DNA of 64,000 nucleotides. Origin: Acinetobacter phage vB_AbaM_ME3. The stretch lies in sequence record KU935715.1. One strand, given 5' to 3'. Under the pieces are notes generated by a model. The model searched no databases and was not told the origin of the DNA. It saw only the letters and a program-made list of their open reading frames with translations. How positions within the stretch are numbered: position 1 is the first letter of the stretch; every line of letters starts with the position of its first letter. A program made the position numbers and the translations under genes. Shown here piece by piece: positions 14,997 through 54,498 of the stretch.

Positions 14997-16097
14997 TTAG
15001 AGAGCATATGCTGATTGGTTTGTTAAAAAACTTTTATACATTGGTTGAATAAGGAATTTAAGTCCTTGATGAATAATTGTAATTTCACGTGTCATTGGAT
15101 TTTGACTAATTTCACTATTCATGTGAGTAATATATACATCAAATGCTTGATCACCTAATTCTTCATCAGTTGAGTATGGGTTCCATTCATTACGATGTTT
15201 ATTTAAAAACTCTAATAAACATGAAGAATTAGCTACAAAATCAGCAGGATCATATTCAGAATTAGTATTAAGATTAAACGCTCGAATATTAAATTCAATA
15301 GTGTCATTATTCAATTGAGTTTTAATATTAAGAATTTCAGTTAAACTTGCAATTGACTCTTCAGGATACTGATTCATTTCTTTAATTAATACAGATAACA
15401 TATCAATATTAAATTTAGAGAACTTTCCTACAAATTCCAATACTTCACTAGTACGTGATTGATCTTCTAAGTTATCTTTCATGTACTCTTTAAGTAGTTC
15501 AATATCTAATGATTTGAACTCAATATTAAAATAAACACGACCAGGACGATTGCTAAAGTACTCTAAATGGTGACCATATAAAGTTGTATTAGCAGTCATT
15601 AAGAATAAAGTATGTTGAGGCCATGTACCATCTAATAAGCTTAACATAGAATTACGAGGTTCAGCTTCCATGTATACTTTTTCAAATTCATCAATCACTA
15701 CAATTTTATCTTGAGTAATACTTTGAAGGAATTGATTAAATGTAGAACCAGCATAAGGTTGATCAACAATTAAGACAATTCCTTGATGAGATTCTACAAA
15801 GTTAATACAAATACGTTTAAGTAATAAGCTCTTACCACTTCCTTTTTCACCTACAAAGGCAGCAGATGTAGCTTTGTCTTGACGTTCAAAGTATGTATCT
15901 AAGATACGACCAGCCCAACGATCTGATTTTCCATATACTTTATGGTAAATAGTAAAAGGATTTGTAGGGCTTAAGAAGAATTGTTTAACTTGGTCATCCC
16001 ATTGAACAGAATAATAACCAGCTGGAATAACAGGTACAATAAACTTTGCTAGATTTTCAGCAACATAATAACCATTAGGTTTATTTAAATAAGACAT
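14997..16097 (-). CDS. P-loop NTPase (Walker A GEKGSGKS, Walker B IVVIDEFE)
   Basis: Both motifs read directly. Confidence 0.55.
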   Translation of the reverse strand: MSYLNKPNGYYVAENLAKFIVPVIPAGYYSVQWDDQVKQFFLSPTNPFTIYHKVYGKSDRWAGRILDTYFERQDKATSAAFVGEKGSGKSLLLKRICINFVESHQGIVLIVDQPYAGSTFNQFLQSITQDKIVVIDEFEKVYMEAEPRNSMLSLLDGTWPQHTLFLMTANTTLYGHHLEYFSNRPGRVYFNIEFKSLDIELLKEYMKDNLEDQSRTSEVLEFVGKFSKFNIDMLSVLIKEMNQYPEESIASLTEILNIKTQLNNDTIEFNIRAFNLNTNSEYDPADFVANSSCLLEFLNKHRNEWNPYSTDEELGDQAFDVYITHMNSEISQNPMTREITIIHQGLKFLIQPMYKSFLTNQSAYAL

Positions 16098-16597
16098 TAT
16101 AAAAGTCCTTGTCTGATTTCATTTCGAATTTGCATTAATACTTCACCAAGAAGATTACGACCATTCCATTGAGAAGGATCTGTAGCTCTTGGATCATCTT
16201 CTTCTAAACCAACGCCCCAAATCTTATCATTAGGATTACATTCAACTAAGGTTAGTTCTTTAGTTGCTAATAAGTAGTCACGATACTTAGGAATAGTATA
16301 TTTTTGACGATTAATTTCTAGCATATAGTTATAACGAACTTGTTCCCAAGATGCATCATTATAATTAGATACTTTACGACCGAGTTGCTTAGCTTGGATT
16401 GGCTGTAACTGAGTATTTTCTAAAAGCTTCATTGTAGCTTTATCATTAAAATGAAGAGCTTTAGCATACATAAAAGCATTTTCTGTATATAAAAATGTAA
16501 CACCTTTATATTCAAAACCAGCAAAAGCAAAATTACTAAATGGGCCTCTTAAAAAGAGTAAGTAATTATCTTTAATTGTACATTGAGGAATATTCAT
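16097..16597 (-). CDS. NADAR / YbiA-like (DUF1768) domain protein
   Basis: FLRGPFSNFAFAGF...AFMYAKA...DKIWGVGL matches the NADAR family signature. Confidence 0.6.
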   Translation of the reverse strand: MNIPQCTIKDNYLLFLRGPFSNFAFAGFEYKGVTFLYTENAFMYAKALHFNDKATMKLLENTQLQPIQAKQLGRKVSNYNDASWEQVRYNYMLEINRQKYTIPKYRDYLLATKELTLVECNPNDKIWGVGLEEDDPRATDPSQWNGRNLLGEVLMQIRNEIRQGLL

Positions 16598-16971
16598 TAC
16601 ATTATCCTAGGATTAATAATTTGAAGATATACAGCATTTTTATTAGGACCATTACTAAACTTAAAGTAAGAGTCAGAATTGGGTAAGAGCATTATTAAAT
16701 CATTGTAAACTTGCTTAGTGAAAATAAAAGTAATACCTTCATTTTCAATTAAGATGTTTTCAAAGTTACTGGGATCTTTACTCCCAAAAGCTAGTGCAAA
16801 AAGATCAGAATAACCAATTTGAGGAATAAAAGTAACAACTTCTAATTCAGGAGCTTTCCTATAAACTGAGAAGAAATTTTTCCACATTCGAAGTGTATTC
16901 TGATGAATATTTCCAGGATGTATTCGAATCTCAGGTACATAAAATTTATTTAACTTTGGCATGTTAAGCAT
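16597..16971 (-). CDS. hypothetical protein (124 aa)
   Basis: ORF-track ORF. Confidence 0.5.
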   Translation of the reverse strand: MLNMPKLNKFYVPEIRIHPGNIHQNTLRMWKNFFSVYRKAPELEVVTFIPQIGYSDLFALAFGSKDPSNFENILIENEGITFIFTKQVYNDLIMLLPNSDSYFKFSNGPNKNAVYLQIINPRIM

Positions 16972-17242
16972 TAACTGTTAATTCAAATGTAATCACACTT
17001 GGTTCTGATAAAAATATTAAGCCTGTAGCATTTGAAGTTAATATAAAATATGAATCAGCTCTTGATAACTTATTATTTATATTCTCACGCATAGTGGCAC
17101 TGAATCCAAATACTAACCCATTGGACTCAATAAAGAGCATATCTTGAGATGTATAATGTTCTTTATCTCTAGGTAATACTCTTACTATGTATAATCCTTG
17201 TACGAATATGTTCGATATCATATACATAGAGAAAATCAACAT
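16964..17242 (-). CDS. hypothetical protein (92 aa)
   Basis: ORF-track ORF. Confidence 0.45.
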   Translation of the reverse strand: MLIFSMYMISNIFVQGLYIVRVLPRDKEHYTSQDMLFIESNGLVFGFSATMRENINNKLSRADSYFILTSNATGLIFLSEPSVITFELTVNA

Positions 17243-17344
17243 TATCTCTAGAATTTAAAAAAGTTCTATACGAATCTGCTGTTTCCTGAATGATATGTCC
17301 ACCTACAATATTACATGGACTTACATTAAATTTTAAAAGGGGTT

Positions 17345-17686
17345 TCATCTTTCTTTAAACTCAAATCTGGAGTTTTGAGAATTATAATCCAGAACAAAAT
17401 CTAGTCCTCTAAATTTAGAAAATATTGACTGAATTACATAGAATACATTGTTATCAATATAGAAGGACTTCAGATTAGTTTTAAATATAATCTTTAATGA
17501 ATTTTCAGTTGGTATATAAACAGGTGAAACTAATACAGATTGATTTGAAAGCTGAGATATTAAAAATTTAGAAACACCAGCTTCTCTATAAAGGGCTAAA
17601 GCTGCTTTAGCTGAATCAGATATATATAGTGAGTACTGAGATAAGTCAACAAATTGATTAAGTTTATTCATGAGGTTTGCAATCAA
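17345..17686 (-). CDS. paralog family A member (KL-x-KF leader; probable start at internal Met, MNKLNQF, ~17671)
   Basis: Shares the N-terminal leader with neighbouring ORFs. Confidence 0.5.
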   Translation of the reverse strand: MIANLMNKLNQFVDLSQYSLYISDSAKAALALYREAGVSKFLISQLSNQSVLVSPVYIPTENSLKIIFKTNLKSFYIDNNVFYVIQSIFSKFRGLDFVLDYNSQNSRFEFKER

Positions 17687-18011
17687 TAATTTTATAAGGT
17701 TCTTTAAAATCTATTAAAGGTAATAATCCATATCTAATGCTTTTAGGTCCAAATACATAATCTGTTTCAAATGATTTACGCATAACTTGACCATCTATAT
17801 AAATAATGCATTGATTGATTTTAAACCATACAGAATCTTTTAAATCATATTTTGAAGGAGGAACTCGATAGAATCCTAAACAATCCTCAGCGTATGTACT
17901 ATCACTAATATAGACACTTTTATAGATATCCTTTATTTTTAATAATCTACTATACATATCTAAACACATTCGTATAGAATGATTTATCTTAAACCGAGAT
18001 AAAGTGTTCAT
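17664..18011 (-). CDS. paralog family A member (MNTLSRFKINHS...)
   Basis: Leader motif. ~115 aa. Tandem arrangement. Confidence 0.5.
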   Translation of the reverse strand: MNTLSRFKINHSIRMCLDMYSRLLKIKDIYKSVYISDSTYAEDCLGFYRVPPSKYDLKDSVWFKINQCIIYIDGQVMRKSFETDYVFGPKSIRYGLLPLIDFKEPYKIIDCKPHE

Positions 18012-18013
18012 AA

Positions 18014-18355
18014 TTATAAGACCTCAACGTCAATATATGCTGATGATGGGTTATCAATCATACGAAATGAATAACTAGCAAAAGAGTCTCTAAGCATAAC
18101 ATGCCCAGAGATAAAGAAATCAGTTAAGTCCCCACTAATTGAAACAATTTGTTGATTACTCAATCGTATTTTTATCTCATTATATGATTCATATAAGGCA
18201 GGTTTGATTCCACCTAAATGTACCTGATCGATCCCTTTTGAATAACGAGCAATATGTAGATGACCAAATTTTCCTGTATACTTAATAAGCTCCTCTACAC
18301 AACTTGAGTGTACTTTTATAGTAGTTAATTTTTTAAATTTAAGAAGAGTTGCCAT
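18014..18355 (-). CDS. paralog family A member (MATLLKFKKLTTIKV...; internal ISGDLTDFF motif)
   Basis: Leader plus central SGD(I/L)xxLL-like motif. Confidence 0.55.
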   Translation of the reverse strand: MATLLKFKKLTTIKVHSSCVEELIKYTGKFGHLHIARYSKGIDQVHLGGIKPALYESYNEIKIRLSNQQIVSISGDLTDFFISGHVMLRDSFASYSFRMIDNPSSAYIDVEVL

Positions 18356-18702
18356 TAAATCACATCCACTGGTAAATACTCATTATTTATATTAAAAGGA
18401 ACAGCACAATAAGACAACAATGAACTTCCAAGTTGTTTCTCTAAACAAAAACCATTTGATAGTAAATGAGCTATATCACCACTTATATAAATAGGACAAT
18501 TAATACCTATTCTAATTGCAAAAGAGCCTTCATCAATAAACTGTTTTGGTTTTATTGTCTGCAACAGATTTGCTGAAATATGTTCACTAATTTTGCTAAT
18601 ATATAATCTCATTTGGTATTTAGAATAAATTCGTAAATCATTAAAACAATCTTGACTTAATTTTATAGTTGTTGGAAGTTTAAATTTATTCAATTTTTGC
18701 AT
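18355..18702 (-). CDS. paralog family A member (MQKLNKFKLPTTIKL...; YISGDIAHLLSNG)
   Basis: Leader plus SGD motif. Confidence 0.55.
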   Translation of the reverse strand: MQKLNKFKLPTTIKLSQDCFNDLRIYSKYQMRLYISKISEHISANLLQTIKPKQFIDEGSFAIRIGINCPIYISGDIAHLLSNGFCLEKQLGSSLLSYCAVPFNINNEYLPVDVI

Positions 18703-18718
18703 ATTAATCCTTTATATA

Positions 18719-19042
18719 TTAAGTAATCACTTCATCTAATGTTTTATAAAGGATATTTGATTCTTCTTTTTTACAAAATAATCCTTCTCCAGGAATTCGA
18801 TAAATTACCTTTTGAAGATCATAGTCTTTCTCAACTAAAATAGTAAGATAACCGTCACTATATATATTCATATTATTAATAACAGATTGAGCACAATGAC
18901 GTTTATAATAAACATGAAGTCGTGATCTACGTGTAGTATCTAAAGTTAATACAATAGAATCATTAACTCCTGATAATAATTCATATAGTTCATATTCTAA
19001 TTTTAAACCTTGAAAAGACTTAAACTTTTGTAAACTATTCAT
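18719..19042 (-). CDS. paralog family A member (MNSLQKFKSFQGLKL...)
   Basis: Leader motif. Confidence 0.5.
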   Translation of the reverse strand: MNSLQKFKSFQGLKLEYELYELLSGVNDSIVLTLDTTRRSRLHVYYKRHCAQSVINNMNIYSDGYLTILVEKDYDLQKVIYRIPGEGLFCKKEESNILYKTLDEVIT

Positions 19043-19406
19043 ATACTTCTATAAACTCTTCTTCTCGTATATCTCTAATAATACATCCTCTACCTGGATA
19101 TTCATCATATTTACGAGACATAACTTTGCTATCATTTTGAAGTAATTTAACTATGTCACCTGACATATGTAAGGTACAATTATTTTTAAAAGGAATTTTT
19201 AAAGAATCTTCTTCACAGTAATTCCTGTTGGTTTGAGTATAAAAACTAATAGCTTCTTTAAACTCAGGAACATCTTCTCTAGACATGTATTGTATATAGA
19301 TATTTTTATAAGTTCTTGAATGTTCTAATACACTGTTATAGACATCTTTAGTAAATTTAATAGAAGGTGGTAATTTGAATTTAGATAGTTTCATATTGAT
19401 CCTCAA
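19035..19406 (-). CDS. paralog family A member (MKLSKFKLPPSIKF...; HMSGDIVKLLQND); start probably internal Met at ~19394
   Basis: Leader plus SGD motif. Confidence 0.55.
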   Translation of the reverse strand: MRINMKLSKFKLPPSIKFTKDVYNSVLEHSRTYKNIYIQYMSREDVPEFKEAISFYTQTNRNYCEEDSLKIPFKNNCTLHMSGDIVKLLQNDSKVMSRKYDEYPGRGCIIRDIREEEFIEVYE

Positions 19407-19740
19407 GATTTATTTCAATTACTTCATCTAAGTCACTTAAGTCATCAATTGAACTAATTATATAATCACCTGTAACTCCTCTAGCCATACATGCATTAGA
19501 GTTCAATTTATCTATAATGCTTCCGCATATAACTAAAGTATTATTTTGAAAAAGTTTAATTATACCTTTTGTATCTAATTGCATTCGTTTCCGAGGTATG
19601 GAATACAAAGAAAATTCATCTCGATCAAACCAGCAAGCATACATAATATTATGAGCTTTAGAATAGTTTATAAAGGTATCATAGAGGTCTTTAGTTATTT
19701 TTATAGATTTTGTATCTATAAATTTTTGTAATTTATTCAT
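19381..19740 (-). CDS. paralog family A member (MNKLQKFIDTKSIKI...; VICGSIIDKLNSN)
   Basis: Leader plus (I/C)(S/C)G motif. Confidence 0.55.
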   Translation of the reverse strand: MNKLQKFIDTKSIKITKDLYDTFINYSKAHNIMYACWFDRDEFSLYSIPRKRMQLDTKGIIKLFQNNTLVICGSIIDKLNSNACMARGVTGDYIISSIDDLSDLDEVIEINLEDQYETI

Positions 19741-20071
19741 AATATATTTCTATTAATTCATCTTGAGATACTAATTCTTTATCAATTATTTCATACACAT
19801 TTTTAGATATTCTAGATAAACATACAGACTCATTTAATTGTTGAGCAACTGTACCACATATAAATAATAAAAAGTTATTTTCAAATCTTAAACATATATC
19901 ATTTACAGCTTGATAATTTGGAAGAGCTTTACTATACAGCACAATAGTACTACTACCTTGCTGTTGTATAACTAGTACCTTCTGCATAGCAAAATTATGA
20001 GAGAGATCAAGTGCTACTCTATGTGTTATGAATACACTTTTACGAATTTTAAATTTACTCAATTGCATCAT
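19733..20071 (-). CDS. paralog family A member (MMQLSKFKIRKSV...; FICGTVAQQLNES)
   Basis: Leader plus ICG motif. Confidence 0.55.
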   Translation of the reverse strand: MMQLSKFKIRKSVFITHRVALDLSHNFAMQKVLVIQQQGSSTIVLYSKALPNYQAVNDICLRFENNFLLFICGTVAQQLNESVCLSRISKNVYEIIDKELVSQDELIEIYYE

Positions 20072-20375
20072 AACAGTCTATTTCTATAACTTCTTCAAAA
20101 GTACTATTAAGAAAAACATAAACCCCTGGTTCTTTTCTATATAAATATTTTCCTTCTTCTATATCTAAACTATTTAAATAGAAGCGGGTTTGATCTATAT
20201 AGAAAATTACATATCTATCTAAAGAAAATTTTTTTGGACGACGAGTTCCTAAATATAATCCTTCATCATTAGAATAAAAATAAAAATCTCTTGAATTAAA
20301 TTTAGTCAAAAATTGGTAAAAAGAATGTGTAATTAATAGGGTAGTTTTAATTTTAAAAGACTTAAGAAAAGCCAT
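20055..20375 (-). CDS. paralog family A member (MAFLKSFKIKTTLLI...)
   Basis: Leader motif. Confidence 0.5.
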   Translation of the reverse strand: MAFLKSFKIKTTLLITHSFYQFLTKFNSRDFYFYSNDEGLYLGTRRPKKFSLDRYVIFYIDQTRFYLNSLDIEEGKYLYRKEPGVYVFLNSTFEEVIEIDCYDAIE

Positions 20376-20685
20376 AAATTTCTATCTCCATAATTTCTTC
20401 GTCTACATTATGAAGAAATTGATAATCAGCAGCACCTAATCTATGTAAAATTTTTCCTTGAAGAATACTTTCAAAATGTTCGGGATTTAATAACATATTA
20501 GAAGTTCCAATTCTAAATCTAATATAATTTATTCTTGAAACAGGTCGAATCATTTGAAGTCGCATACCACTATCACGATTGTTAACAAAAGTTAAAGGAC
20601 TTAACTCTATATCATTTATAAATTTATATGTTGACTTCGATATACGTATTACAGAAATTGTTTTGAATTTATTAAGCTTCTTCAT
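20362..20685 (-). CDS. paralog family A member (MKKLNKFKTISVIRI...); the ORF-track 5' extension to 20772 is probably spurious
   Basis: The family-consistent start MKKLNKF at 20685 avoids a 100-nt overlap with the upstream ORF. Confidence 0.5.
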   Translation of the reverse strand: MKKLNKFKTISVIRISKSTYKFINDIELSPLTFVNNRDSGMRLQMIRPVSRINYIRFRIGTSNMLLNPEHFESILQGKILHRLGAADYQFLHNVDEEIMEIEIYGFS

Positions 20686-21013
20686 CAATGATTTCAAAAC
20701 TCCTAAAAGGTATATCAGTTTTAATAAACTTAGATACAATTCCATCCTTAACCAAAGCAGTACCTTCTTCAATACTATTTAAATGCCTTCTTGTTATATA
20801 GCATTTAATATTATCAATATAAAAATGTACATAAGGTCCTAAATCATAATGCCTTGCTAGATACATAACCCAACGATCAGCATCCATATGATAATATGTA
20901 AGGACAATCTCAGTTTCTTCATATCCTTCAAGATGATGTTTTAGTTCAGTAATCAAACTATCTGTTATGTTAATAACTTTAGAAAAAGTTTTAAACTTAT
21001 TAAATTTTTTCAT
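20672..21013 (-). CDS. paralog family A member (MKKFNKFKTFSKVINI...)
   Basis: Leader motif. First gene of array 1. Confidence 0.5.
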   Translation of the reverse strand: MKKFNKFKTFSKVINITDSLITELKHHLEGYEETEIVLTYYHMDADRWVMYLARHYDLGPYVHFYIDNIKCYITRRHLNSIEEGTALVKDGIVSKFIKTDIPFRSFEIIDEEA

Positions 21014-21575
21014 CTTCTATATCCTGATGATATTTTTCGATAATGTCATCTAAAGAAAATACTTTGTGTTCTACGTCAAGACCAACATCATATTGGAACT
21101 TCTTACGATCTTTATAAGTACCGTGACAATGACCAAATAAATTAATTGATCCTCGATGAGACTGATCCCAAGAACCTAATGGATAATGACTCATAGTAAT
21201 ACGAGTAGTTAAAGAATCTGAAATTTTAACATCTCTTAAACAGAAGTAATGATTTATATATTTATGAGGATTTAGTTTATAGACTTGTTGAAAAGCTTGC
21301 ATAATCATATTAGCAAATTTTTCATCATGATTACCTAAAGCGATATAAACCAAAACACCCTTATCTTTAAAATATGTAAAGAACTTAATAAACTCTTGCA
21401 ACTTAATCCTAAAATTACAAGAGATATCTCCTAATAAGTAGAGAATATCTCCTGATTTTAAATGATCAAATTTAGACATGATCCATTGATTATGCTCTTC
21501 TTCAGTACATGGACGATTACAATATTTAATGATATTTTTGTGCGACAGGTGCAAATCCGATGAGAAATGGATCAT
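21000..21575 (-). CDS. calcineurin-like metallophosphoesterase (Ser/Thr phosphatase-type)
   Basis: Motifs SDLHL, LLGDI, GNHD, GHCH in canonical order. Confidence 0.75.
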   Translation of the reverse strand: MIHFSSDLHLSHKNIIKYCNRPCTEEEHNQWIMSKFDHLKSGDILYLLGDISCNFRIKLQEFIKFFTYFKDKGVLVYIALGNHDEKFANMIMQAFQQVYKLNPHKYINHYFCLRDVKISDSLTTRITMSHYPLGSWDQSHRGSINLFGHCHGTYKDRKKFQYDVGLDVEHKVFSLDDIIEKYHQDIEDEKI

Positions 21576-22660: not shown

Positions 22661-22693
22661 AAAAGCCTCTACTATAATTTAGTAGAGGCTTTT
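22661..22693 (-). terminator. rho-independent terminator (also a hairpin on the plus strand)
   Basis: aaagcctctact-ataattt-agtagaggcttt followed on the minus strand by TTTTTTATTGG. Confidence 0.6.
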
Positions 22694-23399: not shown

Positions 23400-24845
23400 T
23401 TATGTTCTTTGTTGAAAACCAAAACCAGTATTTACTAATTCTGTGCTTTCATTTTCACGTCTACCTGCTAATAAAGCAAATAGATTAGCTAAAGTAATAC
23501 GATCTGGAAGACTTTCTTCTAAGTCTAAACGATCACAACGATTTAGTACTTTAACTGCTTGTTCTTTATGCAATGCATCTACATGAATAGCTTTATAGCA
23601 ACGGCCTTCACGTAATAGAGCTTCATCAACATCTGCTAAATTATTTAAGTTAGAAGTAAAGATAACTTTCTTTTCTTTCTTAGCTGTTAATCCATCAGTG
23701 ATGTTAAGAAGTTTTTTCATCACTTCATTACCATCTTTCTGACGACTATTAATATAAGTATCAGCATCTTCAATAATTAAGAATCGTTCATCACTATCAT
23801 AGAAATGAGAGAATAACGAATCCATATTAGCAATATCTTTATTGTATGTGATTAAACAAGATTCATTAGCATAATGTAAAATTTGCTTTAATAAACTTGT
23901 TTTACCAGTACCTGGAGCTCCATACAATAATAACACAGCTGAATCAGATTCTAAATAGCCATTAATAAAATCTTGAAGATTAATATCATTTAAGAAAGGA
24001 TAAGCTTCTTCAATAAAAGTCTTATTACGAGGAATTGGAATAGTTTTAATATTCAAATCACCTGACTGTGTAATACGATCAACCCATTGAACTTCAACTG
24101 TCTTAGGTTTTAATTCTAATAAAGGGTGAAGTTCTTCAGCTAATGTAGTAGGCATGATTGCATTATTAATAAAGTAATCAGCAGGAACCTTATGAGTATG
24201 TTCAATAGATATAAAACCACCATCCATTAAAATCTCATAATGCTTTTGAAGCTTTTCACCATAATGAGTAAATACTGTTAAAGCTTTTGATTTAGCAAAT
24301 TCTAAAATAGCTTCAAATGATGCTTTTGTAATTTCAGTATATGTATAAGTAGATAAAGGAATTCCTTTATCTAAAGAATTTTGTTGAATATTAACTAGGT
24401 ACTGCATACCGAATGAAGCAGTAACAATACTAGGACTTAAATTATTTTGAGAAGTCATTGGAGGGCTCATAGGAATATTATATACAGGTACTTTAGTATA
24501 AGCTGGATTTACATCTGGTGAATGATAATAGTTAGGACCACTTACTGCGTAGACATGCTTGCCTGTATAAGATACTTGAAGATCATATGAATCTCTGGGG
24601 TTAGCATTGTACTGTGGACCAACCCCTGTAAGAGTATTATAAATAGACTTATTAAAACTTGAAGCAGTAATTTGTCTTAAAAAAGTTCTATAATACATAG
24701 ATACGTAACTAATACGATCATATGAATTTAACTCTCCAAACTCATTATTAACAGTTGGAGAAACACCTTCAACAATTTTAAAAGCGTTTCTAAATATAGA
24801 CATTATTTGAAATGGTCTATGTCTTCGAAGAGTTACTCTTGCCAT
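23400..24845 (-). CDS. AAA+ ATPase domain protein (481 aa)
   Basis: Walker A LLLYGAPGTGKTSL and Walker B-like FLIIEDAD in the C-terminal half. Confidence 0.6.
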   Translation of the reverse strand: MARVTLRRHRPFQIMSIFRNAFKIVEGVSPTVNNEFGELNSYDRISYVSMYYRTFLRQITASSFNKSIYNTLTGVGPQYNANPRDSYDLQVSYTGKHVYAVSGPNYYHSPDVNPAYTKVPVYNIPMSPPMTSQNNLSPSIVTASFGMQYLVNIQQNSLDKGIPLSTYTYTEITKASFEAILEFAKSKALTVFTHYGEKLQKHYEILMDGGFISIEHTHKVPADYFINNAIMPTTLAEELHPLLELKPKTVEVQWVDRITQSGDLNIKTIPIPRNKTFIEEAYPFLNDINLQDFINGYLESDSAVLLLYGAPGTGKTSLLKQILHYANESCLITYNKDIANMDSLFSHFYDSDERFLIIEDADTYINSRQKDGNEVMKKLLNITDGLTAKKEKKVIFTSNLNNLADVDEALLREGRCYKAIHVDALHKEQAVKVLNRCDRLDLEESLPDRITLANLFALLAGRRENESTELVNTGFGFQQRT

Positions 24846-25041: not shown

Positions 25042-25731
25042 TTAATTCTCTTCTACAGAAGGCGCTACTGTAGCGCCTTTAAGAGCAGCTAAACGTTCTT
25101 GAGCTGATTTTTGAGTAGTATTGTATTTCTTAACTACTTCTTGACCAACTGGTTTAGTCTTCTCTTTTACACGTTTAATACCCTTATAACGAGAAGACAT
25201 TTCATCAGCATCGCGACGAACTTGTTCAATTTGGGCACGTAATCCATTAGGAATACTATCAGAGTGAAGTTCAATTAATGCTTTAGCAGCATCATAACGT
25301 ACTTCAGCTAATGTAAGCGTTTGCTGTGCTTGAACAATGTCTTCATCAATTGTTTTAAGCTCTTCTTCTAGATCTTTAGAATGTTCTACAAAAAGATCTA
25401 AAGTAGATTGTAATACTTCTAGTTCTCTTTCAGCAGCATCTAATTCACTTGCAATTATTTCTACATCTGAAGTATTACCTTCAGCATCAGCTTGTAATAA
25501 AGCTGAATTTAAAGCTTCAATTTGTTTTTGAGCTTCTACTACTTTACCTTCATATAAAGCCGCTTTACCTTCTGTAGTTTCAAAAGTTTTAACTACAGCA
25601 CAACGAGCTTCATTATATTGCTTTAAAATACGATGACTACGATTTTTAATTGAATCTAATTCATCTAATGTACGATCTAATTTAGATCCAAAAATTAAGA
25701 AGAATTTTTTGAGTAACTTAAAAAAGTTCAT
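25042..25731 (-). CDS. PspA/IM30-like coiled-coil protein
   Basis: N-terminal MNFFKLLKKFFLIFGSKLDRTLDELDS resembles the PspA/Vipp1 N-terminal amphipathic pattern, followed by a long coiled coil. Confidence 0.4.
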   Translation of the reverse strand: MNFFKLLKKFFLIFGSKLDRTLDELDSIKNRSHRILKQYNEARCAVVKTFETTEGKAALYEGKVVEAQKQIEALNSALLQADAEGNTSDVEIIASELDAAERELEVLQSTLDLFVEHSKDLEEELKTIDEDIVQAQQTLTLAEVRYDAAKALIELHSDSIPNGLRAQIEQVRRDADEMSSRYKGIKRVKEKTKPVGQEVVKKYNTTQKSAQERLAALKGATVAPSVEEN

Positions 25732-32101: not shown

Positions 32102-32946
32102 ACATTACTCTCTATATAAGACTGAAGTTGTTGAGAAATGTTGTCAAATTCATCATCATTTGTATAAAAGAATGGATTAGTATGATGACCAACTTGATAC
32201 CAACCTTCAGCTTCTTTTACTTTACGAATAACACCTAAAGAGCGACCTTCCTTGTCTTCCATTTCCCAACCAAAACGTTCTTCATATAATGCAATACCAC
32301 AAGGAGAAACGTAAACTAATGGTTTTCGAACAATTTTACAAACGGAATAGACATAGATTAAATCAATATCAGGTTCATTATAAAGATAGTCAGCTTGGGA
32401 TTTTTGATTTCCAATATAACTTCCCCACTTTTCCCAACGCCAGCCACCACTTGGAGGTTGATGTTCTTTAAAAATAGGAGTTAAGAAAATACAATATTCA
32501 TCATCTTGTTGTTCAAGCCATTTATACATTCGATAAACTTGATCTTCATTATCACAAACACCATAACCTTTAAAATAATATTGATCTGTATAGGTCTTTT
32601 GAAGCTTTTGTAATTCAGCTCTAGAAAGATCTTTAACAGCATCCCAATGTTTTAAATGAAATTCAGTCTGACGGAAACCTAGCGCTTTACGAAACTTACG
32701 ATTTCGTTGATCAATTGGTTTACTTAATTTAATACGAGTTAAATGAGTTTCAATTTCGTATGAAGGGGGAGTACAAATATGTGGGTTTAAACTACCACAG
32801 ATCATGATACCTTTATATTTTGTTGCATAGAATCTTTCTCCATTTTGATAATCAATATACTTATGCATTGATTCTTCTGGAAAAGCTTCTTTAGCTTTTA
32901 GAGCATATACAGGATGATAGTGTTCAGAAGTAACATTACTTAACAT
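32089..32946 (-). CDS. hypothetical protein (285 aa)
   Basis: ORF-track ORF with a TAG stop. Confidence 0.55.
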   Translation of the reverse strand: MLSNVTSEHYHPVYALKAKEAFPEESMHKYIDYQNGERFYATKYKGIMICGSLNPHICTPPSYEIETHLTRIKLSKPIDQRNRKFRKALGFRQTEFHLKHWDAVKDLSRAELQKLQKTYTDQYYFKGYGVCDNEDQVYRMYKWLEQQDDEYCIFLTPIFKEHQPPSGGWRWEKWGSYIGNQKSQADYLYNEPDIDLIYVYSVCKIVRKPLVYVSPCGIALYEERFGWEMEDKEGRSLGVIRKVKEAEGWYQVGHHTNPFFYTNDDEFDNISQQLQSYIESNVWTT

Positions 32947-33319
32947 TTTCAGATATCCAAGTTTGAATAGCAGATGGAGAAGTTAAATTTACAACAACAT
33001 TTAACTCATATTTATTATTAGAAATTTCATAAATAACTAAACGAGAAGCTTCTGATAAAATTGAATCAGGTAACAATGATGTAAAATTATCATGAACAGA
33101 AGCCATAAGAGTAAAACCAGGTCGAGATGGAGCTGTGTCTTTCCAACTATTACTATACAAATGTAGATCAACTGTACTTAATCTATTCCTTCTATTAAAT
33201 CCACTCCCAAATCTCCAAGTTTCAAAAAGACTACTATAAAAGGCTACAACGTATCTTTTATCTCCTTTCACAACTTCTGAAAACTTCATTAAAGGTTTAA
33301 GAATATTCATCGTAGACAA
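32936..33319 (-). CDS. paralog family B member (ASVHDNFTSLL motif)
   Basis: Shares the (A/G/T)S(V/I)H.(N/D)L..LL motif with ORFs at 34028, 37016, 37362, 37711 and 38094. Confidence 0.5.
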   Translation of the reverse strand: MSTMNILKPLMKFSEVVKGDKRYVVAFYSSLFETWRFGSGFNRRNRLSTVDLHLYSNSWKDTAPSRPGFTLMASVHDNFTSLLPDSILSEASRLVIYEISNNKYELNVVVNLTSPSAIQTWISENVK

Positions 33320-33669
33320 ATTCCTAGAGTCTTTTCTAGAGATTCTATTGTTGGTTGATGAATATCATATATAAGTTTTAATTCATCTTTAGAAATGAAA
33401 GTCTTTTCTGTATCAAAAAATGAATATACTTTAAAAGATGTAATAGCGGATGCAGGAACTTGCATAATATTTAAAATTGCAGCACCTTTTAACTTATCTA
33501 AGCTATCAATTGGATAAGCATGTCCAGAGACATTTTCAATCCTGATAATCCTAGAAGGTAACTCTGAAATTCCACTATTTAAATATACTTCATGTAGAAT
33601 TCCAGCGTTCGAAACCATTACAGAACAGATATACTGTTGAGGGTTAGAAAATCTGCTTAATCGTCGCAT
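33307..33669 (-). CDS. paralog family C member (C-terminal ESLEKTLGI motif; MRRLSRFSNPQQY leader)
   Basis: Leader plus a C-terminal motif shared with ORFs at 33657 and 38467. Confidence 0.5.
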   Translation of the reverse strand: MRRLSRFSNPQQYICSVMVSNAGILHEVYLNSGISELPSRIIRIENVSGHAYPIDSLDKLKGAAILNIMQVPASAITSFKVYSFFDTEKTFISKDELKLIYDIHQPTIESLEKTLGICLR

Positions 33670-34049
33670 TCAATCTCCAAGGCTTCAAATAAAGATTTAA
33701 TAGTTGGATTAGTAAGCCTATGAAGAAGTGACAATTCATTTTTTGCATACACTTTATTCTCATAAGGAGGTAAAGCATATATTTTAATTAGATAAACACT
33801 TCTTCTTGGGTCTGAAAGTATTTGTAAAAGATTAGATTGTTTTAATACATTAGGATCTGTAATAACAAAAGCTAATTGAAGATAAACAGGCATATCACTT
33901 GTTACTGAATGATTAATTGTAACTCGACGTACAGGATTTTCAGTTAAAGAGTGATATAAAAATACTTCATTAGAATCAACTAAAGATTGAATAGAGATAA
34001 CATATTCCACATGAGATTTAAATTTCTTTAAATATTTTGTCTGATCCAT
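33657..34049 (-). CDS. paralog family C member (MDQTKYLKKFKS...; C-terminal KSLFEALEI)
   Basis: Leader and C-terminal motif. Confidence 0.5.
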   Translation of the reverse strand: MDQTKYLKKFKSHVEYVISIQSLVDSNEVFLYHSLTENPVRRVTINHSVTSDMPVYLQLAFVITDPNVLKQSNLLQILSDPRRSVYLIKIYALPPYENKVYAKNELSLLHRLTNPTIKSLFEALEIECDD

Positions 34050-34396
34050 TCTTCTATCTCTTCTTGGGATTTCAGATTTGCAATAAGAGAAGGGTATTCA
34101 TAATACTCTTCAAAACCATAGATTTGAATTGATGTTGATCTTTCAATAAGAGACTTACTAAGTAAAGCTATAAAATTTGTATGAACTGAAGTTGTTAAAT
34201 TTGCAGAGCAAATGTTCTCATGAAACTCAGGAAACATTCTACGAACATTAATACAAGCAATTCGATTCTTGGAATTAATTGCGGATGCATAAATCCAGTC
34301 CGAATCCAAACTATCTTCATAGAGTTTGGATTTAAAAAGAGCAAAAAACTTAGAAGGAAATCTTACAGAAGGCTTAAATATAGATAATATTCTCAT
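34028..34396 (-). CDS. paralog family B member (MRILSIFKPSV...; TSVHTNFIALL)
   Basis: Leader plus SVH motif. Confidence 0.5.
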   Translation of the reverse strand: MRILSIFKPSVRFPSKFFALFKSKLYEDSLDSDWIYASAINSKNRIACINVRRMFPEFHENICSANLTTSVHTNFIALLSKSLIERSTSIQIYGFEEYYEYPSLIANLKSQEEIEEWIRQNI

Positions 34397-34528: not shown

Positions 34529-35608
34529 CTATTTCCTTAATTCGTTAGGAACAATTCTTTTAAATCGCCAATGGTTACTTCCATCAGCAATATGATTTGC
34601 TCTAACTAATTTACAAAGTTTATTTCGAAATTCAGAATAATGAAAAGATTTAGTTGTACGAACTACTATACCTTCATGTCCTGCTTTAACAACTTGTTTA
34701 AATAAATCATTAATTACAACTTCATCGTATGGTCCTCGATATATTTCTTGAACCATTGTCATACCTAACAATTCAAACCATTCTTTTGTATCATCCCAAG
34801 ATAGACATATGTCCTTATCCCACACTTGGAATCCGTACAAATATGAATCTAAATCTTGATAATGAATTGCATGTTTAGCATATAAATTCTCTGCATAGTA
34901 ACGCATACCTTCAGGAATATTATAAGCAATATGTTGATAATGGAAGTTCTTTGCCCAAGCACGAGATTCATGATCTAAAGAATCGATAGAACGAGCATGA
35001 CAATAATCGGGGTATCCCGCAAAGTTCTCTCCATCCATTTTAATAGTTATTACAATTTCATCAGATACTAAATGATGTGATATATTGTAATTAGTTTTAT
35101 CATCTTCAGTTTTATGAGCACTTAAAGGATGATGATACGAACGAGGATACTTGTAATAATGAGTAAATTCATCTAGTACTCCGCCATCAGATAAAACTTT
35201 CTGAACTGATTCATCATAGAATAATGGACCAGGCATTCTCTTACCATTAAGAAGAATGATGTTACCCCATTTATCATATTGATGATCAGGGTACATATAT
35301 TCAGGAAGAACAACTTTTTGAGCTCCTACCTTCTCTCTTACTTCATCACAACTAATAACTGTTTGTTCGCACTTTAAATGACAAGAATCACAGACGGTAC
35401 CAGCGTTTTCGATATGATAGCCAAAACAATCCGAAAATAAACGTCTTTCGACAATGTGATGCACAGATAATTTCTCTGTACTACCACAGAAGATACACTT
35501 GTGGTTGTCTCTTATTAAACCTTGTTCTCTAAATTCATCTCTAGATAAAGGTTTCCCATCTGTTCCATGACAACCACAAATTGTTGAGTGAGGTTTACTA
35601 GATTTCAT
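34529..35608 (-). CDS. HNH-type zinc-finger fused to an ATP-dependent RNA/DNA ligase-like nucleotidyltransferase domain
   Basis: N-terminal CxxC...HH...CxxC (CIFCGSTEKLSVHHIVERRLF...CDSCH) HNH-like motif. Central TIKMDGENF resembles the ligase adenylation motif I (KxDGxN/R). Confidence 0.45.
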   Translation of the reverse strand: MKSSKPHSTICGCHGTDGKPLSRDEFREQGLIRDNHKCIFCGSTEKLSVHHIVERRLFSDCFGYHIENAGTVCDSCHLKCEQTVISCDEVREKVGAQKVVLPEYMYPDHQYDKWGNIILLNGKRMPGPLFYDESVQKVLSDGGVLDEFTHYYKYPRSYHHPLSAHKTEDDKTNYNISHHLVSDEIVITIKMDGENFAGYPDYCHARSIDSLDHESRAWAKNFHYQHIAYNIPEGMRYYAENLYAKHAIHYQDLDSYLYGFQVWDKDICLSWDDTKEWFELLGMTMVQEIYRGPYDEVVINDLFKQVVKAGHEGIVVRTTKSFHYSEFRNKLCKLVRANHIADGSNHWRFKRIVPNELRK

Positions 35609-35991
35609 ATTGGATTACCTTTTATTACTTTAATAATATCCCATCTAGAGACACCTTGATCAAATATAGTAACTTTAAAAGAAGAGAAGTTAACAGAGTT
35701 ATTATCATCGACTTCATATTCACATATTGCAATCTGATTGACACTACTAAAGTATGGTGAAAAATCATCAACAATTGTTTCTAATGAGGATGTTAATGTT
35801 ATTGAACCAGTATGATTAAAATTATGTTTTTCTATTTGAACCCTATTAGTTCTGAAATATTTTAAGCCTTGACATGACTTTAATGCCATACCATGCCAAT
35901 TTTCAAAGTAATCAGGAACAAATGAATTTAAACGATAGAAAAGTCCATAGTACTTTTGAGTACATAATTTATATTTTTCTAAGTATTTCAT
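35605..35991 (-). CDS. hypothetical protein (128 aa)
   Basis: ORF-track ORF with ATGA overlap to the ligase-like gene. Confidence 0.5.
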   Translation of the reverse strand: MKYLEKYKLCTQKYYGLFYRLNSFVPDYFENWHGMALKSCQGLKYFRTNRVQIEKHNFNHTGSITLTSSLETIVDDFSPYFSSVNQIAICEYEVDDNNSVNFSSFKVTIFDQGVSRWDIIKVIKGNPI

Positions 35992-37015: not shown

Positions 37016-37357
37016 TTATTGAAGAGATTGATAATATTCATTTACCTCTTGTCTGGTTTTTAAATGAATAATAGGTGTTAAAGTTTTATCTGAATGGTAG
37101 TAACAGATAACAGCTTGTTGAGCAAAGCGTTGAACTCCTTTAGACATTAAATCTTTTAAATTTTCATGAATAGAAGCTGAATGATTTATAGGAGAATATT
37201 TTTTAGCTACATCACATTTTTGTGAAATAATACTAGATCCTACCCTATTCGCTGCATTGTATCCTAAAGCATATTGCCAACGAGATTCTGTTAATTCTGT
37301 AAAAAGTACAACATATCTAGGAATAAATTGCGTTTTAAAATTAGATAATTTTTCCAT
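37016..37357 (-). CDS. paralog family B member (MEKLSNFKTQF...; ASIHENLKDLM)
   Basis: Leader plus SIH motif. Confidence 0.5.
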   Translation of the reverse strand: MEKLSNFKTQFIPRYVVLFTELTESRWQYALGYNAANRVGSSIISQKCDVAKKYSPINHSASIHENLKDLMSKGVQRFAQQAVICYYHSDKTLTPIIHLKTRQEVNEYYQSLQ

Positions 37358-37361
37358 ATTA

Positions 37362-37727
37362 TTAAGAACCTAGAGATTGTTTAAACTCTCGAATTTGCTC
37401 TTTAGTTTCAAGTTTTTTATATTCGTGAAGATTATAAATATCATCAACTTTAGTTACAGAACAAATAATGATTTCTTGAGAAACTAACATTATATTCGAA
37501 CTTAATAAGTTATTAAGATTCTTATGTAAAGAACCTCGATTATTAATAACTTTATAAGTTTGCATTACTTGATCTTCAGGATCAATATAACATCGTCCTG
37601 TAGAATGTGATGCATTAAACCCTAAGCCTACTTGCCAACGAGGATATCTTTCTTCTCTAAAGAGTACAACATATTCTCCAGTATCAATTTGATTTAAACT
37701 TTTTGTAAAACTATTTAACTTTTTCAT
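37362..37727 (-). CDS. paralog family B member (MKKLNSFTKSL...; GSLHKNLNNLL)
   Basis: Leader plus SLH motif. Confidence 0.5.
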   Translation of the reverse strand: MKKLNSFTKSLNQIDTGEYVVLFREERYPRWQVGLGFNASHSTGRCYIDPEDQVMQTYKVINNRGSLHKNLNNLLSSNIMLVSQEIIICSVTKVDDIYNLHEYKKLETKEQIREFKQSLGS

Positions 37728-38115
37728 AATAGTCTATCCAAGGCTGAAGATGTTCTAAGTCATGTTGTCGAATAAATGCAACGATATTATGAGAAGTTAA
37801 ACTAGTTAGTGATCTAATTTCTGATAAATCAGGAGATAATTCAATAATAGTTTTTGACCAAGATATAGGAAGACTAGTAGGTAAAAGAGTTTTCAAATCT
37901 TTATGAACAGAAACTGTATTATTTATCAAGTCATGCATAATTCTATAATCATTTAACACTTCACTTTCTGTATAAACTTTAACGTGTCTACTTCGTTCAG
38001 TTGCGTTTAATCCACTAGCAAACATATCACTAATGACTAATGCAAATACAGAATCAAATTGAAATCGATTTTGTACATAACTTTTAAATTTAATTAGCTG
38101 TTGTTGACTCGCCAC
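37711..38115 (-). CDS. paralog family B member (QQLIKFKSYV...; VSVHKDLKTLL)
   Basis: Leader plus SVH motif. Confidence 0.5.
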   Translation of the reverse strand: MASQQQLIKFKSYVQNRFQFDSVFALVISDMFASGLNATERSRHVKVYTESEVLNDYRIMHDLINNTVSVHKDLKTLLPTSLPISWSKTIIELSPDLSEIRSLTSLTSHNIVAFIRQHDLEHLQPWIDYYEKVK

Positions 38116-38483
38116 TCTTCAGCCTCTTGTATATTTTTGAAATGAAGAATTTCATGTACTACAGGTTCACCTTTATAATAACGATATACTTTAATTTCTT
38201 TAAAATAGTTATCTTCTACAATTTCTTCAGAAATTAAAGTTAGAAGATTATCATGAACAGAAGCTTGAGTATTTTGACTATCACATGCTTTATGTAATTC
38301 TGGGAACATGTCTTCAACATCTATATATGTAAGTCGATTATCAGATGTTACACCATCTCCATATTCCCAATAGCAAACTTCATAATCTGTTTCATCGTCA
38401 TAATGATTTTCATCAAATCTGAACAGCATGAAATAAAGAGGATCACCTTTTAAGGCAGGGTTAAAATTATCTAATCGTTTCAC
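38094..38483 (-). CDS. paralog family B member (MKRLDNFNPAL...; ASVHDNLLTLI)
   Basis: Leader plus SVH motif. Confidence 0.5.
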   Translation of the reverse strand: MKRLDNFNPALKGDPLYFMLFRFDENHYDDETDYEVCYWEYGDGVTSDNRLTYIDVEDMFPELHKACDSQNTQASVHDNLLTLISEEIVEDNYFKEIKVYRYYKGEPVVHEILHFKNIQEAEEWRVNNS

Positions 38484-38853
38484 GTTTAATCTTAATTCCT
38501 AAATTTTTTTCAAGATCTTCTAATTTAGGATTGGTAAAAGACCAATACAATTTTAAATCAGAAGGAGTTAACTCAGTATCAGATGTAGTCTCAATAAGAA
38601 CTTCATATATTTTAATACTTTGAACATTTCCTTGATTAAATACTTCTTGAGTTACAGCATTAAATTGAAAAGCAGTTTGAAAATCTTCAAATACAGTTAC
38701 AGATGAAGATATTTGTCTGCTAAACATTCCTTCTATATAAGCTTCAAAACCTTCTTTAAGAGAGCTACGTAGAAATACATCTAGAATGTTATGAGAATCT
38801 AAAGAAACAACATATTGACTTCTTTTAGAAAATTTATTTAATTTAGCCATCAT
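38467..38853 (-). CDS. paralog family C member (MMAKLNKFSKRS...; C-terminal EDLEKNLGI)
   Basis: Leader plus C-terminal motif. Confidence 0.5.
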   Translation of the reverse strand: MMAKLNKFSKRSQYVVSLDSHNILDVFLRSSLKEGFEAYIEGMFSRQISSSVTVFEDFQTAFQFNAVTQEVFNQGNVQSIKIYEVLIETTSDTELTPSDLKLYWSFTNPKLEDLEKNLGIKIKRETIR

Positions 38854-50209: not shown

Positions 50210-50925
50210 GATAATAACTCTTTAATAATTTGAACATTATCTTTAGTAGGAGTCATTAAGAAATCACATTCTAACATAAAGAACAGATCAGATTTTGAAT
50301 CACCTATACCAATAGTAACTACACCTGGATGTAGCTCTAACATCTTTTTCTTAATGAAACGAACAGCATCTGTTTTAGGTTTTAATGTTTTAGGGAATAT
50401 AGAAAAACCAGTACCATTAATATACAACTCAAGCCCTTTGTGTTGCTTTAGAATAGAATTTAATTTTAATAAATCCGTAGACTTGTTGTTAATGTTCCCT
50501 TCAATATAAAACCCATAAGTTTTATGAGTAATTAATTTTGAATGAACATTATACAAATGAAGGTACTTAATACTTTCTCTTAATTCATTCTGACTACTAG
50601 ATACTTTACCAATAAGGGTGTCAGTAAATTCTGGAATCAATTTATTATCATAGGTATAAATAAATACACCATAATTACAAACTTTAAATGAGTTAAAGTT
50701 AAAAGTTGATTCAACACGTTTTAAACTTTCAATAGATCTAGCAGTTACAGGAATAACACCACTAGAGCCTGAGTTAAATTCATTAAATAAAGAAATTTGT
50801 TTAGGGGTAGTGCAAATATTACTACCAGAATCTGATGTATAAACAACGTGACGTGGTTCATCAGACTCTAGATGGCGTTCAGTTTGAATGAAAGTTAAAT
50901 CGAGATCACAAAAGCTTAAAAACAT
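50206..50925 (-). CDS. HAD-superfamily hydrolase
   Basis: Motif I FCDLDLTF (DxDxT). Motif IV GIGDSKSD (GDxxxD). Confidence 0.55.
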   Translation of the reverse strand: MFLSFCDLDLTFIQTERHLESDEPRHVVYTSDSGSNICTTPKQISLFNEFNSGSSGVIPVTARSIESLKRVESTFNFNSFKVCNYGVFIYTYDNKLIPEFTDTLIGKVSSSQNELRESIKYLHLYNVHSKLITHKTYGFYIEGNINNKSTDLLKLNSILKQHKGLELYINGTGFSIFPKTLKPKTDAVRFIKKKMLELHPGVVTIGIGDSKSDLFFMLECDFLMTPTKDNVQIIKELLS

Positions 50926-52033: not shown

Positions 52034-52036
52034 GTC

Positions 52037-52336: not shown

Positions 52337-52420
52337 TTTAAATCCTTCTGAAAAAGAAAAGGACAGAATATTTCATCTGTCCATCTCTTTGTTATTTATT
52401 CAATTTAGAAATTTTAAATC

Positions 52421-53032: not shown

Positions 53033-53042
53033 AATAAAATCC

Positions 53043-54486: not shown

Positions 54487-54498
54487 GATTAATCCTTA

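Follow-up and report, generated by a model that had tools for sequence, protein, structure and literature searches.

A short N-terminal leader heads a hypervariable array of small genes in Acinetobacter phage ME3 and may serve as a docking tag

Introduction

What holds one short N-terminal peptide nearly constant across a run of small genes whose remaining sequence changes fast? The question is raised by a 64,000-nucleotide stretch of the genome of Acinetobacter phage vB_AbaM_ME3 (ME3; sequence record KU935715.1), the whole of which we call the window. At 17345-21013 on its minus strand lie eleven consecutive, co-oriented open reading frames (ORFs) with ATG-defined starts, each encoding 106-119 amino acids and each headed by the same leader, with the consensus M-x-K-L-x-K-F-K. 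We found that the leader heads at least 24 small genes of four families (A-D) in the window, and that it is a portable module on otherwise unrelated protein bodies, not a family signature. We propose, with a probability of roughly 0.4, that these genes encode hypervariable small effectors with a common docking tag, that the prohead is the likeliest partner of the tag, and that the effectors would be packaged and co-injected with the phage DNA.

ME3 is a jumbo myovirus of 234.9 kb that has been called a genomic orphan, with a head module distantly akin to that of Bacillus phage 0305phi8-36 (PMC5000817, PMC8878043); the isolate is reported lost (PMC8878043). Eleven protein groups whose members all come from ME3 have been described, 'perhaps' arising from duplication (PMC5795418), and in the literature searched we found no earlier description of the leader, of the families, or of their structures or dynamics. 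The whole window is AT-rich and its genes lie nearly all on the minus strand; the GC content is 26-33% throughout (0.26-0.33), against 40% overall in the genome announcement (PMC5000817).

Results

The leader is constrained as a peptide and is shared by unrelated bodies

In the alignment of the array proteins, M1 and F7 show no variation and the conservation of L4 is 90% or more, which bears out the near-identical N-terminal leader that an earlier sequence-only reading of the window had described. The pattern L-x-[KRNQS]-F, at most seven residues from an N-terminal Met, is found in 22 of the 134 minus-strand ORFs, where about 2.6 would be expected from its frequency elsewhere. Relatives of the locus were available as contigs of metagenomic phages from five Logan assemblies, built from the runs SRR27674915, SRR28003059, SRR34434921, SRR33452761 and SRR29668569. 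Among 68 distinct leader-bearing proteins from five phages, the Leu is kept in 64 and the Phe in 62 (the other six have Tyr), and the intervening Lys is found in 50.

The codons behind these residues vary synonymously (CTT, TTA, TTG and CTA for Leu4, AAA and AAG for Lys, TTT and TTC for Phe7), and no conserved DNA was found upstream of the leader-bearing genes. We therefore ruled out a DNA or RNA motif as the cause of the leader; the constraint acts on the peptide. Between the window and its relative L001, nonsynonymous divergence (dN, estimated by the Nei-Gojobori method) is 0.124 in the leader and 0.238 in the bodies. The first 10 residues carry a net charge of +0.5 to +3.5 in 21 of 22 proteins, the remaining one being the last array protein, m11, at -0.5.

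Beyond the array, the leader is found on two genes directly downstream and on twelve more at 32.9-38.9 kb. BLAST clustering assigns 6-7 members to a family B and three to a family C, and two further genes make up family D; the family of the array itself is called A. When profiles were compared using hhalign with the leader included, the sole aligned segment in the A-B, A-C and A-D comparisons, and also in B-C and C-D, ran from residues 1-9 to residues 1-23. Once 12 residues are trimmed from the N-terminus, no two of the four families show profile-profile similarity (P at least 0.12).

Most of the array members are full-length paralogues

Next, we examined how far the similarity of the array proteins extends past the leader. 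Pairwise BLASTP among the members gives 22-35% identity over 80-116 residues, with E-values down to 1e-12. For a stricter comparison we used leave-one-out hidden Markov models (HMMs), in which the first 10 residues were trimmed, the orthologue was excluded and the left-out member was ranked among all ORFs of the window. Nine of the eleven members rank first (E 3e-3 to 1e-13), so that for these nine the similarity is not confined to the first eight residues. The other two, m7 and m11, reach E-values of only 0.61 and 0.27; in profile-profile comparison with the family A core they show weak collinear matches (m7, P 0.0011, probability 20%, 37 columns; m11, P 0.022). The single paralogous family proposed in the sequence-only reading thus holds for nine members, which these comparisons show to be full-length paralogues, while m7 and m11 demonstrably share leader, size and position only.

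The members are numbered from the end of the array that adjoins a phosphatase gene, and all lie on the minus strand. Within family A, m1 (20672-21013; 113 amino acids, MKKFNKFK) ranks first at a leave-one-out E-value of 2.6e-3 and has an L001 orthologue of 66% identity. Its neighbour m2 (20362-20685; 107 amino acids from an internal ATG, MKKLNKFK; leave-one-out E 1.7e-3) aligns with m3 at 32% identity over 106 residues (E 6e-11), and m3 (20055-20375; 106 amino acids, MAFLKSFK; leave-one-out E 3e-7) is just 50% identical to its L001 orthologue, with a dN/dS ratio of 0.60. Leave-one-out E-values of 6e-8, 3e-12 and 3e-10 were obtained for m4 (19733-20068; 111 amino acids, MQLSKFK), m5 (19381-19740; 119 amino acids, MNKLQKFI) and m10 (17664-18011; 115 amino acids, MNTLSRFK). 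Two further members align well with m8: m6 (19035-19394; 119 amino acids from an internal ATG, MKLSKFK; leave-one-out E 1e-13) at 35% identity over 86 residues (E 1e-12), and m9 (18014-18355; 113 amino acids, MATLLKFK; leave-one-out E 4e-11) at 30% identity over 116 residues (E 2e-9). The m8 protein itself (18355-18702; 115 amino acids), whose structure we modelled, is identical to P0001 'FDH01_gp239' (ME3 gp239). Of the two leader-bearing members with no demonstrable family A body, m7 (18719-19042; 107 amino acids, MNSLQKFK) has one orthologue in L001 and two in L004, and m11 (17345-17671; 108 amino acids, MNKLNQFV) is identical to P0009 (ME3 gp242).

The genes are packed tightly. The eleven small ORFs are co-oriented, and eight of their ten junctions overlap: by 14 nt at m1/m2, m2/m3, m3/m4 and m5/m6, by 8 nt at m4/m5, m6/m7 and m10/m11, and by 1 nt at m8/m9; the remaining two are gaps of 2 nt (m9/m10) and 16 nt (m7/m8). 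A 14-nt overlap also joins the phosphatase gene to m1. The recurrent lengths of 8 and 14 nt come from the stop codon (TAA or TAG) of the upstream gene lying inside codons 2-3 or 4-5 of the next leader, as is seen at 21000-21013, 20672-20685, 20362-20375, 20055-20068, 19733-19740, 19381-19394, 19035-19042 and 17664-17671. Because the stops are embedded in this way, the same nucleotides encode both the C-terminal residues of the upstream protein and the M-K-K-L that begins the downstream one. A scan for promoters and terminators was uninformative, promoter-like sites being rarer than in shuffled sequence.

The families are confined to ME3-like phages

Relatives of the array proteins are few: 10 came from a word-indexed search of 5.8 billion proteins and 22 from HMMER run exhaustively against 1.84 billion representatives, and all of them keep the leader. 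Every HMMER relative traced to its contig was found in an ME3-like syntenic locus, and the distribution of family B is equally narrow. On these searches the families are lineage-specific and confined to ME3-like phages. Megablast and tblastn found no close relatives among GenBank phages in the collection searched, which lacks ME3. Pfam and PHROGs gave no family for 10 members, the lone match (PHROG E <=0.01) being a marginal one of m5 to a PHROG of unknown function. No array protein has a Pfam or PHROG match to the T4 internal proteins IPI, IPII or IPIII, and there was no PHROG match to family B of phage SPN3US or to the phiKZ inner-body proteins, the SPN3US sequences not having been compared directly.

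The array turns over at a fixed position and diverges faster than its flanks

We then compared the locus across the relatives. Their shared neighbourhood comprises DHFR, AAA ATPase, thioredoxin and phosphatase genes, the array, and NADAR, NTPase, NUDIX and TROVE genes, and in every relative the 3' end of the phosphatase gene marks where the array begins. The slot holds 13 genes in the window (the eleven plus two of family D), 15 in L001, 17 in L004/L005, and four full-length genes and two fragments in L006; it is seen in part in L003 and L007, where the contigs end. Array size at this one syntenic position therefore ranges from about 4 to 17 genes. L001 has two additional members at the sole sizeable intergenic gap of the window's array (m7/m8), and in L004 a block of m5-, m6- and m7-like genes is duplicated.

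Divergence follows the same pattern. Array orthologues in the window and L001 share 50-80% identity, against 84-99% for most flanking genes; with L004 the figures are 29-54% and 59-94%. The seven complete array genes of L003 have no orthologue in the window (best matches 21-38%), yet the family HMM recognises them and all have the leader, and the two directly adjoining flanking genes of this relative are 83-91% identical to those of the window (69-91% for the wider flank). Across the relatives, array members range from 21 to 80% identity, compared with 55-99% for flanking genes.

Pooled over the array, dN between the window and L001 is 0.229 and synonymous divergence (dS) 0.632, giving a ratio of 0.36 (0.22-0.71 per gene), against 0.083, 0.421 and 0.20 for the pooled flanks. 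As dN/dS is below 1 in every gene, the ratios point to functional proteins that evolve fast under continuing constraint; gene-wide positive selection is not shown. The array genes are thus functional and fast-evolving, and undergo duplication, loss and replacement. The rapidly diversifying multigene family of the sequence-only reading is upheld by this contrast in identity and dN, by the turnover in L003 and by the range of gene number, and across the genomes compared both copy number and sequence are hypervariable.

Predicted structures place the leader outside two different folds

The AlphaFold2 model of m8, built from an 18-sequence alignment, has a mean predicted local distance difference test (pLDDT) score of 88 and a predicted template modelling (pTM) score of 0.82. 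Its fold, beta-alpha-beta4-alpha-beta3, begins at residue 12, and residues 1-10 have a mean pLDDT of 57 and no secondary structure. A model of the family B protein encoded at 37016-37357 (pLDDT 92, pTM 0.83) has a topology unlike that of family A, beta3-alpha-beta-alpha2-beta2-alpha, and again a poorly defined N-terminus (mean pLDDT 50 for residues 1-10). Families A and B are therefore predicted to differ in fold, with the leader forming a disordered tail in both.

The models also bear on two details of the sequence-only reading. What follows the leader is not the hydrophobic stretch described there but, in the AlphaFold model, the first amphipathic beta-strand of the fold. The central motif shared by several members is present as I(S/C)G(D/S/T), and it sits at a strand-to-helix turn, residues 72-75 of the m8 model, so that it looks structural. 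We considered a signal peptide or a membrane protein and ruled both out: the models are of soluble folds, residues 9-20 form an amphipathic beta-strand and helix, and there is neither an h-region nor a transmembrane segment after the charged N-terminus (the grand average of hydropathy of the proteins ranges from -0.77 to 0.12).

The best, yet weak, structural match to the family A body is to IscA/SufA/HesB-like proteins, with weak scores and a similar order of secondary-structure elements. Members have 0-4 cysteines, with none in m2 and m11, and there is no conserved Cys column, where A-type carriers would be expected to have three ligands; Pfam Fe-S_biosyn gave no match for the array proteins even at E <=1. 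We consequently treat the likeness as one of fold only and rejected an iron-sulfur carrier function for family A, there being no conserved cysteines.

Leader-bearing genes outside the array

All genes described here lie on the minus strand. The two family D genes directly follow the array. The one at 16597-16962 (121 amino acids, MPKLNKFY) is the last array gene before the NADAR gene and shares only residues 1-11 with family A. The other, at 16964-17348, is split in ME3 into the ORFs 17169-17348 (MKPLLKFN) and 16964-17242, which correspond to one intact gene of 127 amino acids in L001 (L001:12694-13077). In the nucleotide alignment the split results from a 1-nt insertion, ATTCGTACAAGG against GTTCG-ACAAGG in L001, located outside homopolymer runs; the gene is a true pseudogene unless the 454 sequencing of ME3 introduced an error.

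A second leader-bearing block at 32936-34396 contains genes of families B (32936-33310), C (33307-33669), C (33657-34049) and B (34028-34396). It is followed at 35605-35991 by a family B-like member that is ME3 gp199 (128 amino acids, MKYLEKYK), and by a third block at 37016-38850, with family B genes at 37016-37357 (the modelled protein), 37362-37727, 37711-38115 and 38094-38483 and a family C gene at 38467-38850. Compared with their orthologues in L002, genes of the second block share 66-83% identity, against 91-94% for neighbours that lack the leader, and those of the third block 56-73%; overall, families B and C are at 56-83% and the interleaved genes without a leader at 88-95%. Family B carries the motif S-V-H-x-N-L, and family C the C-terminal motif P-T-I-E-S-L-E-K-x-L-G-I.

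One further protein has a leader-like start. The conserved 229-residue protein at 25042-25731 begins MNFFKLLKKFFLIF, with L-x-K-F at offset 6 and then a hydrophobic run. This N-terminus recurs in L001, L003 and L004, the L001 orthologue being about 90% identical, and it may be a variant of the leader or may match it by chance.

Genomic neighbourhood and other leads

Upstream, the array is bounded in all relatives by the metallophosphatase gene (21000-21575, minus strand; Pfam Metallophos; 65-95% identity in L001, L003, L004 and L006). Downstream it is bounded by a NADAR-domain gene (16097-16597, minus strand; Pfam NADAR, E 6.5e-39), which is about 90% identical in L001, L004 and L007 and absent from L006. 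Next to the NADAR gene lies an NTPase gene (14997-16097, minus strand; nSTAND5/RNA-helicase-like) that is 55% identical to its L001 counterpart, with a dN/dS of 0.40, where its neighbours are at 88-99%, and so adds a further fast-evolving gene to the region. At 23400-24845 on the minus strand lies a classical-clade AAA ATPase of 481 amino acids (Pfam AAA), whose best matches in the PDB are Cdc48/p97, AFG2 and Bcs1 (E about 1e-11 to 1e-7).

With the NADAR gene, an RNA ligase, a TROVE-like RNA-binding protein, NUDIX and thioredoxin as neighbours, and with Hen1/Pnkp also in relatives, the setting of the array looks like an RNA-repair and counter-defence neighbourhood, as judged from these annotations. 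Its content is itself variable: L006 is without the NADAR and TROVE genes, and a Hen1 and Pnkp RNA-repair gene pair present in L006 (L006:8864-12524) and L007 (L007:4713-8373) is lacking in ME3 and L001.

A perfect 14-bp palindromic hairpin (AAAAGCCTCTACTA...TAGTAGAGGCTTTT) at 22661-22693 lies in a 50-nt intergenic gap upstream of a YqeY-like gene, and may be a terminator or regulatory hairpin at a transcription-unit boundary upstream of the array. Farther away, 49142-55188 (minus strand) holds a Ter-stress and 'nucleoside-like metabolite' cluster with StiP-PELOTA, PRTase_2, TerD, a TerC-like membrane protein and vWA-TerF, which was already noted in the ME3 announcement. At 60712-60897 and 60909-61070 (minus strand) lie two adjacent tiny paralogues (61 and 53 amino acids) with hydrophobic N-termini and a common C-terminal Cys motif, unrelated to the leader families.

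We also looked at a PLD-like/ExoX-C protein encoded at 56246-56842 (minus strand), whose start, MKVLKTYAEFISEA, agrees at 7 of 9 positions with the T4 capsid-targeting sequence (CTS) and its cleavage site. Homologues of 43-49% identity have YLKTF or YIEQA in this place and do not conserve the Glu, and the segment continues without a break into the conserved domain. We rejected it as a CTS, and on this alignment the match is probably coincidental.

Scans of IMG/VR with a single-leader DNA pattern gave isolated background matches only, among the matches listed, and with a paired-leader pattern no ME3-like arrays. Arrays of overlapping small genes of another kind were seen at L196:5158-8486 (minus strand) and in L202, L150, L140, L138, L197 and L199, on IMG/VR contigs of 17-25% GC, several of which come from large genomes of up to 330 kb (L196 itself from a 330-kb contig of 24% GC). 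Their bodies look dissimilar and include one leucine-rich-repeat protein, and their leader codons vary synonymously. An N-terminal MKYL(K/R)(K/Y)FE alternates with MITKF, and a C-terminal (N/K)KFNI abuts the next ATG. Because the search pattern imposed L4, K6 and F7, the likeness of the L196 leader to that of ME3 is partly built in; these arrays may be a parallel tag-plus-array system in very AT-rich giant viruses.

Discussion

The leader keeps its residues while its codons change, and the bodies behind it belong to two or more predicted folds and four or more sequence families; most likely it delivers every one of these bodies to one partner. We infer that the leader is probably a modular docking tag. 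Under this model, each small, soluble, single-domain protein would consist of a disordered, positively charged docking peptide, in which Leu4 and Phe7 are critical, and a compact variable body, and every tagged body, whatever its fold or family, would reach the same partner. The core of the assembling prohead would be the likeliest partner, an identification that we make tentatively and by analogy; the proteins would then be packaged and injected together with the DNA, the tag apparently not being removed by proteolysis. The bodies are candidate effectors of host takeover or counter-defence. Tandem and segmental duplication and deletion would let the arrays grow and shrink, and variable host targets would presumably drive the quick divergence of the bodies while a single partner holds the tag constant.

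Several observations weigh against this proposal. The Leu does not stand at a fixed distance from the initiator Met, being residue 4 in 44 of the 68 proteins and about residue 3 to 10 otherwise, and two hydrophobic residues spaced i, i+3 are a generic motif. No cleavage motif, whether (L/I)-x-E or another, is conserved in the residues that separate the leader from the fold, which starts at about residue 12: positions 8-12 are variable with no conserved Glu, and a protease site directly after the leader, raised as a possibility in the sequence-only reading, does not emerge from the alignment, where residues 9-11 vary. With isoelectric points of 4.5-9.6 the proteins are not uniformly basic, the bodies being mostly acidic or neutral and the positive charge concentrated in the leader. 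No homologue of a known anti-defence protein was found via Pfam or PHROGs (PADLOC was not searched). Finally, the ME3 head module is reported to be 0305phi8-36-like and not T4-like (PMC5000817); since the head is not T4-related, a likeness to the CTS would have arisen by convergence.

A leader that is modular, disordered and constrained at the protein level agrees with any model of peptide docking, and the shared partner could be another machine, a reading to which we give perhaps one chance in a handful. Candidates are the AAA+ ATPase about 2.4 kb upstream or a host hub such as an unfoldase adaptor, the sliding clamp or RNA polymerase. Members of the Cdc48/Bcs1 clade act on substrates via terminal peptides, and the ATPase, which matches Cdc48/p97, AFG2 and Bcs1 domains, would be a speculative reader of the leader that acts on the small proteins at a fixed time, by threading, unfolding, translocating or removing them. 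Its synteny with the array holds in L001, L003, L004 and L006, but this is uninformative because the entire region is collinear in these relatives. As far as we know, the leader fits neither the clamp-binding consensus QL[SD]LF nor the ClpX N-terminal motifs, which counts against a host hub of these kinds. A wider proposal, that an uncleaved, independently evolved tag routes several dozen effectors either to the prohead or to a Cdc48/Bcs1-like AAA+ translocase, as a form of cargo-tagging distinct from the T4 CTS, is one we regard as possible but doubtful. Somewhat less likely than a different machine is a leader with no addressing function at all, either the most conserved part of duplicated gene starts, kept for expression (through A-rich early codons or translational coupling with the overlapping upstream stop codons), or the remnant of one ancient superfamily that diverged everywhere except at the N-terminus. 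The tight packing agrees with this, the upstream stop falling within leader codons 2-5 at most junctions including phosphatase/m1, as does the favouring of Lys and Asn codons (AAR, AAY) at about 30% GC, and the weak collinear profile matches of m7 and m11 to family A make some divergence past recognition plausible. However, the most conserved residue, Phe7, is not part of any overlap, synonymous codon changes leave both Leu4 and Phe7 intact, and the motif is retained in m8, which lies 16 nt from the gene before it, in m9, which overlaps its predecessor by 1 nt, and in m10, which follows after 2 nt. Furthermore, the predicted topologies of families A and B differ, and a functionless relic would not persist at 20-30% body identity across five phages.

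Two other explanations appear more remote. The leader might be a short amphipathic helix that targets the proteins to the cytoplasmic membrane, on its inner face, which we consider improbable. The cationic first 10 residues of 21 of the 22 proteins, with two hydrophobic residues at i, i+3, are compatible with it, and the leader has what we take to be a resemblance to the N-terminal membrane-binding helix of Escherichia coli MreB (MLKKFRGMF). Yet two hydrophobic residues alone predict weak membrane affinity, membrane helices usually keep their amphipathicity and not exact residues such as the Leu and Phe that are kept here (64/68 and 62/68), and the proteins have no transmembrane or lipobox features. 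Least probable by far is that family A proteins are iron-sulfur cluster carriers of the IscA/HesB type: besides the missing Cys column, the two Cys-free members, the missing Pfam Fe-S_biosyn match and the weak structural scores, 11-17 fast-diverging copies would be unexpected for a housekeeping carrier.

If the leader is an address tag, one eight-residue peptide would define a class of effectors, at least 24 genes in 64 kb, that can be listed by sequence and tested as a set. It would show 'constant tag, variable cargo' for a second time, in jumbo phages unrelated to T4, would link hypervariable arrays to delivery, and would offer a candidate tag for loading foreign proteins into Acinetobacter phage particles. 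The fast turnover at a fixed slot marks the genes as likely players in an arms race between phage and host in a priority pathogen. Even without a function the annotation is corrected, in that 'hypothetical proteins' become defined families with confident models and one array gene proves to be frameshifted in the deposited ME3 sequence.

Among known systems, hypervariable anti-defence islands resemble the ME3 slot in their fixed position, their turnover of content between conserved flanks, their small proteins of unknown function and their place beside NADAR and RNA-repair genes. To our knowledge, the genes of such accessory islands are usually unrelated and have no N-terminal tag in common; in the ME3 slot, by contrast, every member is leader-tagged, even those with unrelated bodies. 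A second likeness is to family B of SPN3US and the inner-body families of phiKZ, which, as in ME3, are consecutive paralogues in a giant phage with copy number that varies between relatives; the SPN3US family has 20 members (gps 83, 138-154, 161 and 237), all expected to be head proteins (PMC5694885). Unlike the ME3 families, these were found by virion mass spectrometry, and many have propeptides of more than 100 residues cleaved at A/S-x-E.

The closest parallel is with the internal proteins of T4 (IPI, IPII, IPIII and the polymorphic genes of the IP locus). The T4 CTS, the 10-residue MKTYQEFIAE (PMC8442874), directs small proteins that are otherwise unrelated to the prohead core. Residues 4 and 7 are its main targeting determinants and residues 8 and 10 govern processing; with an Asp at position 10 the tag is no longer processed but still targets (PMC9026906). 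The internal proteins of T-even phages have been described as diverse defence proteins that have only the CTS in common (PMC3012670). Like the ME3 set, they are about 100 amino acids long, with diverse bodies behind a tag of about 10 residues whose key positions are 4 and 7; as in ME3, the set of such proteins differs from one related phage to another, and a role in counter-defence has been proposed or shown (IPI* against GmrSD) (PMC9026906, PMC3012670, PMC8442874). The likeness to the T4 CTS drawn in the sequence-only reading is in this sense strengthened, as an analogy, by a modular disordered tag on unrelated bodies with conserved L4 and F7 at the T4 determinant positions. Unlike the T4 proteins, those of ME3 show no sequence homology to them, have no (L/I)-x-E site and are not uniformly basic. 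The T4 genes are few, whereas ME3 has at least 24 in tandem arrays, and the two phage lineages are unrelated. The leader-coding DNA of ME3 is not conserved at the nucleotide level and gives no evidence for recombinational shuffling through the tag. The architecture of the ME3 locus is real and unusual, and by analogy it would extend to this phage the T4 principle of a constant tag with variable cargo, with a function that we infer.

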